NCBI RefSeq assembly: GCF_046105845.1
Contig: NZ_CP151004.1
Direction: 5' to 3' (one strand)
Source: Escherichia coli
Lineage (GTDB): Bacteria > Pseudomonadota > Gammaproteobacteria > Enterobacterales > Enterobacteriaceae
Length of the DNA: 64,000 bases
The position numbers were made by a program, and so were the translations under genes. Under the pieces are notes generated by a model. That model was given only the letters and a program-made list of their open reading frames with translations, was not told the DNA's origin and ran no database searches. This document shows, piece by piece, positions 36,948 to 43,244 of this stretch (within the stretch, counting starts at the first letter, position 1; every line of letters begins with the position of its first letter).

Positions 36948-37865
36948 ATGCTTATCTTTATCCCTATTCTCATTTTTGTCGCGCTGGTCATTGTCGGCGC
37001 GGGCGTCAAAATCGTGCCGCAGGGCTATCAATGGACGGTAGAACGTTTTGGTCGCTATACCAAAACGTTACAGCCGGGGCTCAGTCTGGTGGTGCCGTTT
37101 ATGGATCGCATTGGTCGCAAGATCAATATGATGGAGCAAGTGCTCGATATCCCTTCCCAGGAAGTTATCTCGAAAGATAACGCCAACGTTACCATCGACG
37201 CCGTGTGCTTTATTCAGGTGATTGACGCGCCGCGCGCGGCTTATGAAGTCAGCAATCTGGAGCTGGCGATCATCAACCTGACCATGACTAACATCCGTAC
37301 CGTGCTGGGTTCAATGGAACTTGACGAAATGCTCTCTCAGCGCGACAGCATCAACTCACGCCTGCTGCGTATTGTCGATGAGGCCACCAACCCGTGGGGG
37401 ATTAAAGTCACCCGTATTGAAATTCGCGACGTGCGCCCACCAGCAGAGCTTATCTCTTCAATGAACGCGCAGATGAAAGCGGAACGTACCAAACGCGCTT
37501 ACATCCTTGAAGCGGAAGGGATCCGTCAGGCGGAAATCCTCAAAGCCGAAGGTGAAAAACAGTCGCAAATCCTGAAAGCGGAAGGCGAACGTCAGTCGGC
37601 GTTTTTACAGGCTGAAGCGCGTGAACGTTCCGCTGAAGCAGAAGCCCGCGCCACCAAAATGGTGTCTGAAGCCATTGCCTCCGGCGATATTCAGGCGGTG
37701 AACTACTTCGTAGCACAGAAATACACCGAAGCGTTACAGCAGATCGGTTCCTCCAGTAACAGCAAAGTAGTGATGATGCCATTAGAGGCCAGCAGCCTGA
37801 TGGGGTCGATTGCCGGGATTGCCGAGCTGGTGAAAGACAGCGCCAACAAACGGACTCAGCCATGA
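36948..37865 (+). CDS. qmcA: SPFH/stomatin-family protein QmcA
   Basis: 305-aa ORF with N-terminal TM segment and band-7 domain. Confidence 0.93.
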
Positions 37866-38320
37866 TGGAGTTAATGGTCGTTCATCCACATATTTTCTGG
37901 CTCAGTCTCGGCGGGTTGCTGCTGGCAGCCGAGATGCTGGGCGGAAATGGTTATTTGTTGTGGAGCGGCGTGGCAGCGGTGATTACCGGTCTGGTGGTCT
38001 GGCTGGTGCCGCTGGGTTGGGAGTGGCAAGGGGTGATGTTTGCCGTCCTGACGCTGCTCGCCGCCTGGCTGTGGTGGAAATGGTTGTCGCGGCGGGTGCG
38101 CGAACAAAAGCACAGCGACAGTCATTTAAACCAGCGCGGGCAGCAGCTTATTGGCCGACGTTTTGTGCTGGAATCTCCGCTGGTCAACGGGCGAGGTCAT
38201 ATGCGCGTCGGTGACAGTTCATGGCCTGTCAGCGCCAGCGAGGATCTCAGTGCAGGTACGCATGTTGAGGTGATTGCGATAGAAGGGATAACGCTGATTA
38301 TCCGTGCGGTCATCGCCTGA
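37862..38320 (+). CDS. ybbJ: NfeD-like inner membrane protein
   Basis: 152-aa ORF overlapping qmcA stop by 4 bp (classic SPFH-NfeD pair). Confidence 0.9.
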
Positions 38321-38480
<160 letters not shown>

Positions 38481-38504: not shown

Positions 38505-38867
38505 TTACTCGTCACTACCTTTATTCATGTTTTTTTGGTCTTCATCCGGATAATGTTTTTTTAGATATTCCAGGACGTTTTTATTGACCTTGTGTTGCGT
38601 ATACACCCACCCTTTCCAGTAATCAGGCTGGTCCAGGTAAACTTCTGGCGGAATGGTGAAATCAGAAAGCGTTAACCATTCGGCTAACAGATCGGGGTTT
38701 CGTTTCTGGATTAACTGCAACAGCATAATCAGTGACATAGCTGAGGCAGGAGCCGTACTATCACCACTCAAATATTTCCACACTGTTGACCGGTTCGAAC
38801 GAAAAAGGATCGGTAGCAATGCCCGGTCCAGATTCATTTCATTAAAAATCTTCTCAAATTCATTCAT
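38505..38867 (-). CDS. Hypothetical 120-aa protein, possible HTH-type regulator
   Basis: ORF with SD-like aggaaa 8 nt upstream of ATG at 38867; segment LLPILFRSNRSTVWKYLSGD resembles a helix-turn-helix. Divergent from the autotransporter gene across a 366-bp AT-rich region. I do not recognise the family. Confidence 0.45.
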   Translation of the reverse strand: MNEFEKIFNEMNLDRALLPILFRSNRSTVWKYLSGDSTAPASAMSLIMLLQLIQKRNPDLLAEWLTLSDFTIPPEVYLDQPDYWKGWVYTQHKVNKNVLEYLKKHYPDEDQKNMNKGSDE

Positions 38868-39233
38868 TTAAATTTTCCTGCCTGGCGTAAACCTCTTAAA
38901 AATTGAGATTTATCAAAGAAACGCATTTTAGCACACATCAGGAACCGCTTCACGTTTAGTTCAGAAACAGAATTTATTTCGCTTATCAAAACAAGTCTTT
39001 ACTCTTTTTTACATTGAAAGAGCACAAAATGATTTTCTATTTTATTTATATAAGAAACATTTTTTGTTTCTTATTGGTGGTGTTTACGCTTACACCAGAC
39101 AAAAATGCGCTTTACATCACACAAATGGCGGCGTAGATTTCGATCAAATTGCAACGCAGATTAATTCTTATAACAACGTTTTACGTTGCTTATAGAAACA
39201 AATATGTGACTTACTTTGAAAGAGAAAAAATGC

Positions 39234-42125
39234 ATGAAAACTGTAAAGCTGTCTTTACTGGCTGTCGTTGTTGCTACCGCGGTAAGTCCATCTGCGTTTG
39301 CGGGTGATACTGTTGAGGCGGCAACGACAGAATTAACGGCAATCCAGCCAGGAATGTCGCAATCGGAAATTGATCAGAAAATTGGTCGATTTTTAGAAAG
39401 GACAGGGAATAGTGCAGCCGCACAAAATTATCTGATTGCGCATGATTACCGGACAACGACACCTCAGGAAAATACAGCTGCCTCTCCCGTACAGCCCGCC
39501 AATACGCTGAACCCGATAACCAATCAAGCGCAGACCGACCGCGACAACGGGCAGGATACCGCCATTCAGGACGCACAACATGCCGCCAACTGGGCTTCAC
39601 TGAAAGCTGATGACGCGCAGCACGCCATCACGGTGGCGCAGACGGATATTGATGCCAATAAAGCCGCCATCGCCGACACCCGTAATGATGTCTCCGCAGT
39701 GCAGTCAGACGTCACCAACATAAAAGGCGATGTCGCACATGCCCAGTCAACGGCTGACCATGCCAACGCTAACGCCAACACCGCTCTGATGAACGGCGTC
39801 AAACTTTCCGGTGCTGTGGCAGAAAACAAAAACAATATCGAACAGAACCGCAGCGATATTGCTGACCAGCAGAAACTGTTGGCATCAAACGAGCAAAAAC
39901 AGATCGTCCGCGACAACGGGCAGGATACCGCCATTCAGGACGCGCAACATGCCGCCAACTGGGCTTCACTGAAAGCTGATGACGCGCAGCACGCCATCAC
40001 GGTGGCGCAGACGGATATTGATGCCAATAAAGCCGCCATCGCCGACACCCGTAATGATGTCTCCGCAGTGCAGTCAGACGTCACCAACATAAAAGGCGAT
40101 GTCGCACATGCCCAGTCAACGGCTGACCATGCCAACGCTAACGCCAACACCGCTCTGATGAACGGCGTCAAACTTTCCGGTGCTGTGGCAGAAAACAAAA
40201 ACAATATCGAACAGAACCGCAGCGATATTGCTGACCAGCAGAAACTGTTGGCATCAAACGAGCAAAAACAGATCGTCCGCGACAACGGGCAGGATACCGC
40301 CATTCAGGACGCGCAACATGCCGCCAACTGGGCTTCAATGAAAGCTGATGACGCGCAGCACGCCATTATGGTGGCGCAGACGGATATTGATGCCAATAAA
40401 GCCGCCATCGCCGACACCCGTAATGATGTCTCCGCAGTGCAGTCAGACGTCACCAACATAAAAGGCGATGTCGCACATGCCCAGTCAACGGCTGACCATG
40501 CCAACGCTAACGCCAACACCGCTCTGATGAACGGCGTCAAACTTTCCGGTGCTGTGACAGAAAACAAAAACAACATCGAACAGAACCGCAGCGATATTGC
40601 CGACCAGCAGAAACTGTTGGCATCAAACGAGCAAAAACAGATCGTCCGCGACAACGGGCAGGATACCGCCATTCAGGACGCACAACATGCCGCCAACTGG
40701 GCTTCAATGAAAGCTGATGACGCGCAGCACGCCATTATGGTGGCGCAGACGGATATTGATGCCAATAAAGCCGCCATCGCCGACACCCGTAATGATGTCT
40801 CCGCAGTGCAGTCAGACGTCACCAACATAAAAGGCGATGTCGCACATGCCCAGTCAACGGCTGACCATGCCAACGCTAACGCCAACACCGCTCTGATGAA
40901 CGGCGTCAAACTTTCCGGTGCTGTGACAGAAAACAAAAACAACATCGAACAGAACCGCAGCGATATTGCCGACCAGCAGAAACTGTTGGCATCAAACGAG
41001 CAAAAACAGATCGTCCGCGACAACGGGCAGGATACCGCCATTCAGGACGCACAACATGCCGCCAACTGGGCTTCAATGAAAGCTGATGACGCGCAGCACG
41101 CCATTATGGTGGCGCAGACGGATATTGATGCCAATAAAGCCGCCATCGCCGACACCCGTAATGATGTCTCCGCAGTGCAGTCAGACGTCACCAACATAAA
41201 AGGCGATGTCGCACATGCCCAGTCAACGGCTGACCATGCCAACGCTAACGCCAACACCGCTCTGATGAACGGCGTCAAACTTTCCGGTGCTGTGACAGAA
41301 AACAAAAATAATATCGAACAGAACCGCAGCGATATTGCTGACCAACAGCAACAACTCGACGAAACCCGGAAAACCGTTGCCGCCACCGGTGATGTACAGA
41401 CTGCCGCCCGATATCAGAGCATGATTGACGCCAGACAGACTGCTGCTGCCAATGCGCAACAGGAACAAGCGGACACCCAGCAGCAACAAATGGACGATCA
41501 GCAGAAACAAATCGACGCGACGCAAAAAACGGTTTCCGCACTTGGCGATGCCCAGACCAACGCACATTATCAAGAGATGGTTAACGCCGGACTGAGAGCA
41601 CAAAATGATGCGAATGCGCGTACTGCAGCAGAACAAAAACAAAAAATAGATACTCTGGCGACTAACCAGGCAACGCAACAGCATATCGATAGTGTGCAGT
41701 ACGGGGAACAAATTCAGCGTCTGGCGCAAGACTCAACACAAACGCATGAACAAATTGACAGCCTGACACAAGACGTAACCCAAACGCATCAGCAGTTAAG
41801 CAACACGCAAAAACGAGTAGCGGATAATAGCCAGCAGATTACTACGCTCAATAACCATTTCAGTTCGCTGAAAAACGAAGTTGAGGACAACCGTAAAGAA
41901 GCCAATGCGGGAACTGCATCAGCCATCGCTATCGCCTCACAACCACAGGTGAAAGCCGGTGACTTTATGATGATGTCAGCGGGAGCGGGAACCTTCAACG
42001 GTGAATCTGCGGTGTCTGTCGGAACATCTTTTAATGCCGGAACGCATACCGTGATTAAAGCCGGTGTCTCTGCGGATACGCAATCTGATTTCGGCGCGGG
42101 TGTCGGCGTGGGATATTCTTTCTAA
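39234..42125 (+). CDS. Trimeric autotransporter adhesin-like protein (type Vc) with coiled-coil repeat stalk and YadA-type anchor
   Basis: ORF 39216..42125; ATG at 39234 gives 963 aa. Sec signal peptide MKTVKLSLLAVVVATAVSPSAFA; long Q/A/N/D-rich helical repeat region; C-terminus EANAGTASAIAIASQPQVKAGDFMMMSAGAGTFNGESAVSVGTSFNAGTHTVIKAGVSADTQSDFGAGVGVGYSF fits the YadA-like anchor pattern (alternating small residues, glycine-rich beta strands, terminal aromatic). No recognisable YadA head motifs. Confidence 0.75.
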   Translation: MKTVKLSLLAVVVATAVSPSAFAGDTVEAATTELTAIQPGMSQSEIDQKIGRFLERTGNSAAAQNYLIAHDYRTTTPQENTAASPVQPANTLNPITNQAQTDRDNGQDTAIQDAQHAANWASLKADDAQHAITVAQTDIDANKAAIADTRNDVSAVQSDVTNIKGDVAHAQSTADHANANANTALMNGVKLSGAVAENKNNIEQNRSDIADQQKLLASNEQKQIVRDNGQDTAIQDAQHAANWASLKADDAQHAITVAQTDIDANKAAIADTRNDVSAVQSDVTNIKGDVAHAQSTADHANANANTALMNGVKLSGAVAENKNNIEQNRSDIADQQKLLASNEQKQIVRDNGQDTAIQDAQHAANWASMKADDAQHAIMVAQTDIDANKAAIADTRNDVSAVQSDVTNIKGDVAHAQSTADHANANANTALMNGVKLSGAVTENKNNIEQNRSDIADQQKLLASNEQKQIVRDNGQDTAIQDAQHAANWASMKADDAQHAIMVAQTDIDANKAAIADTRNDVSAVQSDVTNIKGDVAHAQSTADHANANANTALMNGVKLSGAVTENKNNIEQNRSDIADQQKLLASNEQKQIVRDNGQDTAIQDAQHAANWASMKADDAQHAIMVAQTDIDANKAAIADTRNDVSAVQSDVTNIKGDVAHAQSTADHANANANTALMNGVKLSGAVTENKNNIEQNRSDIADQQQQLDETRKTVAATGDVQTAARYQSMIDARQTAAANAQQEQADTQQQQMDDQQKQIDATQKTVSALGDAQTNAHYQEMVNAGLRAQNDANARTAAEQKQKIDTLATNQATQQHIDSVQYGEQIQRLAQDSTQTHEQIDSLTQDVTQTHQQLSNTQKRVADNSQQITTLNNHFSSLKNEVEDNRKEANAGTASAIAIASQPQVKAGDFMMMSAGAGTFNGESAVSVGTSFNAGTHTVIKAGVSADTQSDFGAGVGVGYSF
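39540..41343 (+). repeat. 4.9 tandem copies of a 369-bp (123-aa) near-identical in-frame repeat within the autotransporter gene
   Basis: cgcgacaacgggcaggatacc recurs at 39540, 39909, 40278, 40647 and 41016 (exact 369-bp period). Unit begins RDNGQDTAIQDAQHAANWAS... Copies 1-2 and copies 3-5 form two subtypes (LKADD/ITVAQ/AVAEN versus MKADD/IMVAQ/AVTEN). Confidence 0.92.
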
Positions 42126-42210: not shown

Positions 42211-42633
42211 ATGATGAATAGTTCCATTAAATCGTTTTCCCTGCTGGCGGTTATATTACTGGCTGGCTGTAGTTCACCCACTTCCCGCATCGCAGATTGC
42301 CAGGCGCAGGGCGTCAGCCATGACACCTGTTATCTCGCAGAACAACAGCGTCAGACGGCTATTTTAAGTGCATCCGAGGCGCAGGCATTTAAAAATGCAG
42401 AAGCCGCACAACATGCCCAGGCGGCAAAGAAAGCCATTTATAAAGGATTTGGCATGACCTTTAGAATGAGCAGTAAGAACTTTGCTTATCTCAATGATTC
42501 ATTATGTGCAATTGATGAAGACAATAAAGATGCCACTGTTTATCAGTCAGGTCTTTATAACGTCATTGTTTATCACCACACGGGAAAAGTCGCCTTAATG
42601 AAGGAAGGTCAGTTTGTGGGTTATTTAAAATGA
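42211..42633 (+). CDS. Putative lipoprotein (140 aa)
   Basis: Signal peptide with lipobox LLAGC, Ser at +2; 85 bp downstream of and co-directional with the autotransporter gene. Confidence 0.6.
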   Translation: MMNSSIKSFSLLAVILLAGCSSPTSRIADCQAQGVSHDTCYLAEQQRQTAILSASEAQAFKNAEAAQHAQAAKKAIYKGFGMTFRMSSKNFAYLNDSLCAIDEDNKDATVYQSGLYNVIVYHHTGKVALMKEGQFVGYLK

Positions 42634-42833
42634 AGGAGCAAAGGAAAATCCCCCTGACGCATATTATGATTATCGGTGCGTTTATTTTTGCCTTCTTGCA
42701 AGTGGTGTTATTAGCCTCCCTGGTTCACGCTGTGAATGTTAACAATGAAATCCAGGAAGGCTTATTTCAATCGGGGCGCATAATGGTAGAAAGTTTGCAG
42801 CATATTCTTTCGGTGCAAACGGGGATTAACTGA
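42630..42833 (+). CDS. Putative small single-pass membrane protein (67 aa)
   Basis: Start overlaps the lipoprotein stop (ATGA); hydrophobic segment IMIIGAFIFAFLQVVLLASLV; stop lies 3 bp from the convergent cueR stop. Confidence 0.4.
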   Translation: MKEQRKIPLTHIMIIGAFIFAFLQVVLLASLVHAVNVNNEIQEGLFQSGRIMVESLQHILSVQTGIN

Positions 42834-42836
42834 TTT

Positions 42837-43244
42837 TCACCCCGCCCGATGATGACAGCAGCCGGAGAGATTTTCGATAATCGGGCAGTCGGCGCTGTCA
42901 TCGCCAGGGCAGGCATTCGCCAGCGCCAACAGCTGGTTGCGCATGGATTGCAGTTCTTCGATATGTCGCTCGATCTCCGCCACTTTCTCCAGGGTGCGAC
43001 GTTTGACGTCGGCACTGTGACGCTGCGGATCGTTAAACAGATTCACCAGCTCGCCGCTCTCTTCCAGGTTAAAGCCCACCTGGCGTGCCTGGCGCAGTAA
43101 GGTCAGTTCGTTGAGATGCTGCTGCGTGTAAGTACGATAACCGTTTTCGCTGCGCATCGGCGGCGTCACCAGCCCCTTCTCTTCATAGAAGCGGATTGCT
43201 TTGCTGGTCAGGCCGGTAATTTTTGCTACATCGCTAATGTTCAT
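42837..43244 (-). CDS. cueR: MerR-family copper-responsive regulator
   Basis: 135-aa [32 protein letters not shown]... with C-terminal metal-binding CPGDDSADC...CCHH; recognised CueR. Confidence 0.95.

Follow-up and report, generated by a model that had tools for sequence, protein, structure and literature searches.

A lambda-repressor-like protein and repeated AGAAAC boxes in the trimeric autotransporter cassette of Escherichia coli O island 29: a candidate local regulator

What does a short, divergently oriented open reading frame (ORF) do beside an adhesin gene? The question is raised by a stretch of Escherichia coli chromosome of 64,000 nt (the window; assembly GCF_046105845.1, contig NZ_CP151004.1), where an accessory island between ybbJ and cueR carries a 120-aa ORF on the minus strand and, beyond a 366-bp gap, an autotransporter gene on the plus strand. 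A preliminary description made from the sequence had noted this ORF, which exists exactly as described, and had proposed it, weakly, as a local regulator of the autotransporter gene. The ORF is z0640/ECs_0549 of O island 29 (S-loop 43) of E. coli O157:H7. Its product very probably has a helix-turn-helix (HTH) fold of the lambda-repressor-like superfamily, and comparison of related cassettes suggests, with a probability of roughly 0.6, that it is a dedicated local regulator of the autotransporter cassette, acting through AGAAAC boxes repeated in the gap. Coordinates are given in Table 1.

Identity and fold of the z0640 product

O island 29 of strain EDL933 consists of z0638, z0639 and z0640 (Yang et al. 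2018, PMC5826968). The ORF is identified as z0640 because the primers published for the island map onto it: the z0640 knock-out arms and quantitative PCR primers (Table S2, PMC5826968) flank or match both ECs_0549 in O157 Sakai and the ORF of the window, one arm being identical to window 38868-38905. Likewise, the arms and expression primers of ‘gmrA’ (z0639) flank ECs_0548, a 338-aa YadA-anchor protein in O157 Sakai, and the z0638 arms flank the lipoprotein gene. The gene order cueR–lipoprotein–adhesin–ORF–ybbJ is common to Sakai and the window, and the ORF product is identical to the Sakai protein at 115 of 120 residues, with every difference within the last eight. The gene itself is already catalogued, as a ‘hypothetical protein’ that ‘requires further characterization’ (PMC5826968; PMC9387321); neither of these papers describes its fold, family, synteny or boxes, and operator candidates and a likely role are absent from the papers found.

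That annotation, together with the lack of a Pfam family, might suggest a spurious or decaying reading frame. Such an explanation is scarcely credible and is refuted on several grounds. The ORF is under strong purifying selection, with a dN/dS of 0.065 against the O157 Sakai allele (dS 0.217) and of ∼0.10 against Pseudocitrobacter; its length and start are conserved, orthologues in other genera beginning at the same MNEF/MNDF residues; its predicted fold is confident; and at least 1413 of the 1415 E. coli genomes that carry it have an intact copy. It is also transcribed in O157:H7, at 43.5 reads per kilobase per million in DMEM, and its transcript drops together with those of z0638 and z0639 on attachment to HeLa cells (Table S3, PMC5826968).

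The AlphaFold2 model of the product, based on a 29-member alignment, has a mean pLDDT of 91.1 and a pTM of 0.80. With 13 close homologues the model was unusable (pLDDT 57), and it was the remote members from an exhaustive search that raised confidence. The N-terminal part folds as in the XRE/Cro-C1 superfamily, into a compact bundle of about five helices of which helices 2 and 3 make the HTH. The segment RSTVWKYLSG, flagged from the start as a candidate HTH, covers residues 26-35 and falls on helix 3, the recognition helix of the modelled HTH; R26 is invariant in 29/29 family sequences. Foldseek matches the antitoxin HigA2 with a probability of 0.99 and a target TM score of 0.68; two further antitoxins, MqsA and NatR, are likewise among the best structural neighbours, as is Aca2. 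Individual family members match the Pfam models MqsA_antitoxin (HTH part), Xre-like-HTH, HTH_3 and HTH_26 at E values of 2e-5 to 3e-4, and alignment of the family profile with MqsA residues 75-129 by hhalign gives P 4e-4. Structure prediction and remote homology, through the XRE-clan matches of its relatives, both bear out the suspected HTH. The C-terminal domain (residues 58-120) has no close structural match and is presumed to mediate oligomerisation.

At the level of sequence the protein stands apart. NCBIfam, PHROGs and PADLOC give no match for the ORF, and profile searches of PDB sequences with its family return nothing significant. The relation to curated XRE models is remote, and the family is an orphan branch without a Pfam or NCBIfam model of its own. 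It is very small, with 23 proteins at E ≤1e-3 in an exhaustive search of 1.84 billion representatives and with members in four species in a one-genome-per-species scan by close alignment (100,044 species). One further hit, the 2772-aa protein P0028, matches through 11 repeats and was dismissed as spurious, being a repetitive surface protein.

The nearest matches, by sequence and by Foldseek, are the C-terminal HTH of MqsA and HigA2. The MqsA_antitoxin model is matched over positions 76-129 with E 0.081 by the ORF product and 2.4e-5 by a relative, and the helix after the HTH is similar as well (KHPELL versus KRNPDLL). Unlike MqsA, the ORF product has its HTH first and lacks the zinc-binding N-terminal domain, and no toxin gene is adjacent; since it contains no cysteine residue, a Cys-based zinc site is excluded. 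An MqsA-type antitoxin was rejected because there is neither a zinc domain nor an MqsR-type toxin gene, the neighbours being ybbJ, repetitive extragenic palindromic (REP) elements and the autotransporter gene; membership in HigA2 was rejected because no toxin gene adjoins the ORF. Aca2, the anti-CRISPR-associated HTH repressor of Pectobacterium phage ZF40, differs by a whole-chain root-mean-square deviation (rmsd) of 7–9 Å, a loose likeness, and by an identity of only 16–18%. An Aca regulator was likewise rejected, given a chromosomal gene with adhesin-cassette neighbours, no anti-CRISPR gene nearby and absence of the family from phages (no homologue among 50,697 phage records).

The divergent control region and its boxes

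The 366-bp gap had been described as strongly AT-rich, and it is: in 300-bp windows its G+C content is 0.32 versus 0.52–0.60 in the flanking genes, with visible A/T runs. Its length is conserved at 359–379 bp in orthologous cassettes of other genera. Eight control regions were aligned, their background being diverged beyond recognition between genera. Within this background the −10 block of the predicted ORF promoter, ATTTTA(G/C)CAC, is conserved across genera, and the block GCTTTACATCACA...GGCGTAGATT of the predicted autotransporter promoter is conserved in 8/8 control regions and in the locus L025.

Against this background one hexamer stands out. Counting both strands, the 366 bp contain AGAAAC five times; dinucleotide-preserving shuffles average ∼0.34 copies, and none of 5000 reaches five. 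The whole window holds 29 copies, about the number expected by chance, and outside this locus none of its 366-bp stretches has more than two. The control region of O157 Sakai has six copies, and AGAAAC is the most enriched hexamer in those of Pseudocitrobacter, Symbiopectobacterium, the metagenomic locus L009 and L025. All four of the Escherichia alleles or species have the perfect inverted repeat formed by boxes 3 and 4, and box-containing inverted repeats with other spacings occur in each genus; the partner of box 5 is a perfect GTTTCT in O157 Sakai. Rfam matches only a REP element (naRNA4) outside the control region, so that no known RNA element explains it. RcsB, PhoP and sigma-28 were considered as box binders by comparing their consensus sequences with the boxes, and were rejected as none fits in sequence or spacing.

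Table 1. Features of the cassette and its surroundings in the window
Feature	Position	Strand	Remarks
ybbJ	37862-38320
REP/BIME (bacterial interspersed mosaic) elements	38278-38447		at the island boundary, ybbJ on one side and the ORF on the other
REP, Rfam naRNA4 match	38370-38447		71.9 bits
120-aa ORF, z0640/ECs_0549 orthologue	38505-38867	minus	ATG start; N-terminal XRE-like HTH domain and C-terminal helical domain
C-terminal helical domain, residues 58-120	38508-38696	minus	AlphaFold2 helices 58-70, 74-77, 83-89, 96-105, 107-118
XRE/Cro-type DNA-binding domain, residues 1-57 (modelled)	38697-38867	minus	five helices
HTH helices, residues 15-22 and 26-34 (modelled)	38766-38825	minus
Divergent control region	38868-39233		366 bp; AT-rich, 32% G+C
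Box 1, AGAAAC	38917-38922	plus	overlaps predicted transcription start of the ORF; AAGAAAC invariant in 8/8 aligned regions
Predicted ORF promoter, extended −10 TGcTAAAAT	38925-38933	minus	read from sequence; predicted start near 38918
Box 2 with imperfect partner, AGAAAC-N7-ATTTCG	38963-38981 (box 38963-38968)	plus	CAGAAAC in 7/8 control regions
Boxes 3 and 4, inverted repeat ATAAGAAACA-N5-TGTTTCTTAT	39050-39074		perfect, 100% complementary
Predicted sigma-70 promoter of the autotransporter operon	39111-39139	plus	TTTACA, 17-bp spacer, TAGATT; consensus scan; predicted start near 39146
GGCGGCG in promoter spacer	39127-39133
Degenerate box, TGCAAC	39150-39155	plus	just downstream of predicted start; true GAAAC in E. 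whittamii, Pseudocitrobacter and L009
Box 5, AGAAAC, with partner (GTTGCT-TAT-AGAAAC)	39185-39199 (box 39194-39199)	plus	in predicted 5′ untranslated region; invariant in 8/8
Trimeric autotransporter, allele of z0639/‘gmrA’/ECs_0548	39234-42125	plus	963 aa; YadA_anchor
Stalk repeats	39531-41352		4.9 tandem copies of a 369-bp (123-aa) unit, 98% identical
Lipoprotein, z0638/ECs_0546	42211-42633	plus	140 aa; lipobox LLAGC
Single-pass membrane protein	42630-42833	plus	67 aa; start overlaps lipoprotein stop
cueR	42837-43244	minus

The strongest argument tying the boxes to the ORF product, a correlative one, is their co-variation with the regulator. In the close clade (Escherichia, Pseudocitrobacter, L009 and Symbiopectobacterium), in which the recognition helix reads NRST(V/I)(W/H)KY, each control region has five or six AGAAAC and no TAGCT; in the diverged clade (Ewingella, L015 and L018), in which the helix reads QRSTLNKW, there are zero to one AGAAAC and five to nine TAGCT (P 0.03 to <5e-4). 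Since the box sequence switches with the regulator clade in hosts that share the same global regulators, the AGAAAC boxes would belong to the ORF product.

The pairing of the two genes is also maintained when the chromosomal site is not. Family members usually stand divergent from an operon of trimeric autotransporter, lipoprotein and small membrane protein, at sites that differ between genera: in Pseudocitrobacter (L002-L005) the cassette lies between fetA and qmcA rather than between ybbJ and cueR, with a gap of ∼370 bp, and in L009 at an unrelated site, with a gap of 367 bp. The more distant L025, whose regulator is 48% identical, has a gap of 359 bp followed by two autotransporters, the lipoprotein and the small protein; Ewingella (L010-L012) has autotransporter and lipoprotein beyond 329 bp, and L026, beyond 219 bp, a partial gene with a signal peptide and an autotransporter-like N-terminus. 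Symbiopectobacterium has both the autotransporter gene and the lipoprotein gene in fragments. The survey thus makes the constant partner an operon ending with the lipoprotein gene and usually headed by an autotransporter.

Proposed role and alternative explanations

The proposed product of the ORF is a small DNA-binding protein of the cytoplasm, probably oligomeric, in which an XRE/Cro-type HTH (residues 1-57) is followed by a helical C-terminal domain peculiar to the family. The ORF would belong to a mobile four-gene cassette with the divergent trimeric autotransporter, the lipoprotein and the small membrane protein. The protein would bind the AGAAAC boxes of the control region. The box over the predicted start of its own transcript would serve negative autoregulation. 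The boxes that precede the autotransporter operon or fall within its transcribed leader would serve to repress that operon until some signal relieves repression, and they might be bound cooperatively or be brought together by looping. Repression is favoured because neither predicted promoter departs far from consensus and because boxes coincide with the predicted starts or follow them; this direction of regulation is nevertheless a tentative choice, to which we give somewhat less than an even chance.

By analogy, the ORF product would work like a small autoregulating regulator of the XRE family. With XRE/Cro-C1 regulators, notably the C proteins of restriction-modification systems, it shares the five-helix HTH and the small size, and with C proteins and Cro/cI-type regulators the repeated or inverted boxes in the adjoining promoter region, one of them over its own predicted promoter. 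It differs from XRE regulators in lacking a significant Pfam match and in its extra helical domain of ∼60 residues, and from C proteins in that its operon partner is an adhesin cassette. Among trimeric autotransporters, YadA is controlled by VirF, UpaG and EhaG by H-NS, and SadA is accompanied by the lipoprotein SadB. The present cassette resembles these systems in its adhesin gene, its AT-rich upstream region and the accessory lipoprotein gene in the operon, and differs from them in the dedicated small XRE-like regulator that travels with it.

Several observations weigh against a dedicated regulator of this kind. No Pfam HTH model is matched above cut-off by the ORF itself, the best score being 13.5 bits for MqsA_antitoxin versus a cut-off of 30. 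Box geometry is uneven: there are head-to-head pairs at N7 and tail-to-tail pairs at N3, and other boxes stand alone. A single fixed dimer geometry would not usually go with such a mixture, which is a weakness of a simple dimer-operator model. The cassettes L015 and L018 have lipoprotein and small protein only, without an autotransporter, and two distant members (Klebsiella L013 and L027) have other neighbours. In O157:H7, moreover, deletion of z0640 leaves motility and fliC/motA expression unchanged, and a z0639 plasmid without z0640 complements deletion of the island (PMC5826968). Taken together, these last two results make an obligatory activator role unlikely and say little about repression. 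If the link between z0639 and motility is real, z0640 is not an essential activator there, and loss of a strong repressor might be expected to raise motility. What the idea of a local regulator has gained is comparative support, in the form of conserved divergent pairing, conserved boxes and co-variation of box and clade; the reported deletion adds no motility change to it.

With a clearly lower probability, the boxes could belong to a host factor rather than to the ORF product. The link between protein and boxes is correlative, firm as the fold is; the control region has a G+C content of 32%, and GAAACA occurs in the C1 site of OmpR. Osmolarity, pH and temperature are in addition reported to affect gmrA expression (PMC5826968). 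A factor of this sort does not account for the switch from AGAAAC to TAGCT exactly where the regulator clade switches, in hosts that are all Enterobacterales with the same global regulators, nor for boxes that move with the cassette to different chromosomal sites; the boxes also lack the 10-bp tandem repeats typical of OmpR-type sites. H-NS silencing of a horizontally acquired promoter, with the ORF as a passenger that has no regulatory role here, would agree with the 32% G+C and the A/T tracts, with the accessory character of an island found in 26% of genomes and with the z0640 deletion having no reported phenotype. It is nonetheless an improbable account, because AT-richness alone cannot account for a hexamer that recurs five times at positions kept unchanged from genus to genus, and because strict co-inheritance, the divergent arrangement and strong purifying selection on an HTH protein are left unexplained. 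Silencing and a dedicated regulator are, besides, not mutually exclusive. Of the silencing by nucleoid proteins put forward in the preliminary description, AT-richness is the part confirmed; the literature searched offered no data on H-NS occupancy of the island or on its derepression in an hns mutant.

A further possibility is that the HTH protein does not act mainly on DNA but is antitoxin-like or an adaptor, or binds RNA in the autotransporter leader, as reported for Aca2. The neighbourhood of HigA2, MqsA, NatR and Aca2 in structure space points that way, as do the invariant box in the predicted 5′ untranslated region and a C-terminal domain without match, which could bind a partner. Yet no toxin-like gene adjoins the ORF, which lies between ybbJ with the REP elements and the autotransporter gene, PADLOC gives no hit, the phage records contain no homologue, and the boxes stand on both strands and outside transcribed regions, as fits DNA recognition; little likelihood is left to this explanation. 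A DNA-binding local regulator remains the preferred reading. With it the XRE family would gain a small branch, orphan in sequence, and >1400 ‘hypothetical protein’ annotations could receive a name.

Neighbouring genes, the GmrA assignment and distribution of the island

The neighbour that the preliminary description had called an autotransporter proves to be of the trimeric, YadA type: it combines a signal peptide and a coiled-coil stalk with a YadA_anchor domain (PF03895, E 1.6e-11). Its start at ATG 39234 (MKTV...) is supported by orthologues and by the published expression primers, the TTG at 39216 of the ORF list being an alternative. The protein is longer here than the 338 aa of O157 Sakai because of the 4.9 stalk-repeat copies. 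In the closely related strain L001, RefSeq annotates only a 350-aa autotransporter product. ECs_0548 had been listed as a ‘Saa-like protein’ (Ogura et al. 2007, PMC2323221), and z0639 was later published as the transcription activator GmrA, with electrophoretic mobility shift and chromatin immunoprecipitation data (PMC5826968). This gene is the trimeric autotransporter gene, and the predicted architecture of its product is that of an outer-membrane adhesin. No DNA-binding domain is detectable in that product (window 39234-42125; O157 allele, L024 31275-32291), in which YadA_anchor is the sole significant Pfam domain; the HTH-fold protein of the island is, according to the structural model, the neighbour of the z0639 product. 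The gene behind the sole published transcription-factor assignment for the island codes for a protein with a signal peptide and with the membrane anchor of YadA, and the GmrA model should be re-examined.

Every cassette, with or without an autotransporter, has the conserved lipoprotein, which may be a helper of autotransporter biogenesis. The lipoprotein carries a conserved N-terminal motif, LAGCSS.ASRMAxCQAQG.S.D.CY.AEQNRQ, and shows weak NCBIfam matches to the XAC1346-family secretion chaperone and to TraV. Solved structures gave no sequence match to it, a null that would extend to SadB if its structure is among those deposited. A small ORF of 48–71 aa is called at the same position after the lipoprotein gene in other cassettes; the resemblance in sequence to the small membrane protein was read by eye, in L004, L009 and L025 only. 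One Symbiopectobacterium locus (L006 4520-5621) has an intact, 82% identical regulator gene beside an autotransporter without its anchor and a lipoprotein gene broken into two ORFs; this symbiont appears to be losing the cassette but keeping the regulator.

Of 5426 complete E. coli genomes, 1415 (26%) carry the ORF, always single-copy and chromosomal, two ‘plasmid’ matches being records of 4.9 Mb and hence chromosome-sized; about a quarter of E. coli genomes carry O island 29. The lipoprotein segment is present in 1416 genomes, a count consistent with inheritance of the cassette as one unit. The synonymous divergence of the ORF (window 38505-38867) from the O157 allele (L024 32658-33020), 0.217, seems high for alleles of one species and would agree with the island having been acquired several times independently, as was suggested in 2018 (PMC5826968). 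Carriers of the island include O157:H7, O55:H7 and O145:H28 together with strains described in that paper as extraintestinal pathogenic (ExPEC), neonatal meningitis-associated (NMEC) and avian pathogenic (APEC) E. coli.

Three minor observations concern the sequences in and around the cassette. In the spacer of the predicted autotransporter promoter, GGCGGCG shows at most one change across the eight control regions, with an invariant core GCG, despite AT-rich and diverged surroundings, and could be a site for another factor. At the ybbJ side, the REP/BIME elements are the reason why a 1-kb query matched every E. coli genome many times. Beyond cueR (43241 onward, minus strand) lies a type I secretion locus comprising an HlyD adaptor, an ABC permease/ATPase and a giant BapA/SiiE-like adhesin gene, the latter annotated as frameshifted in strain L001, so that the ybbJ–cueR region is flanked by two different adhesin systems.
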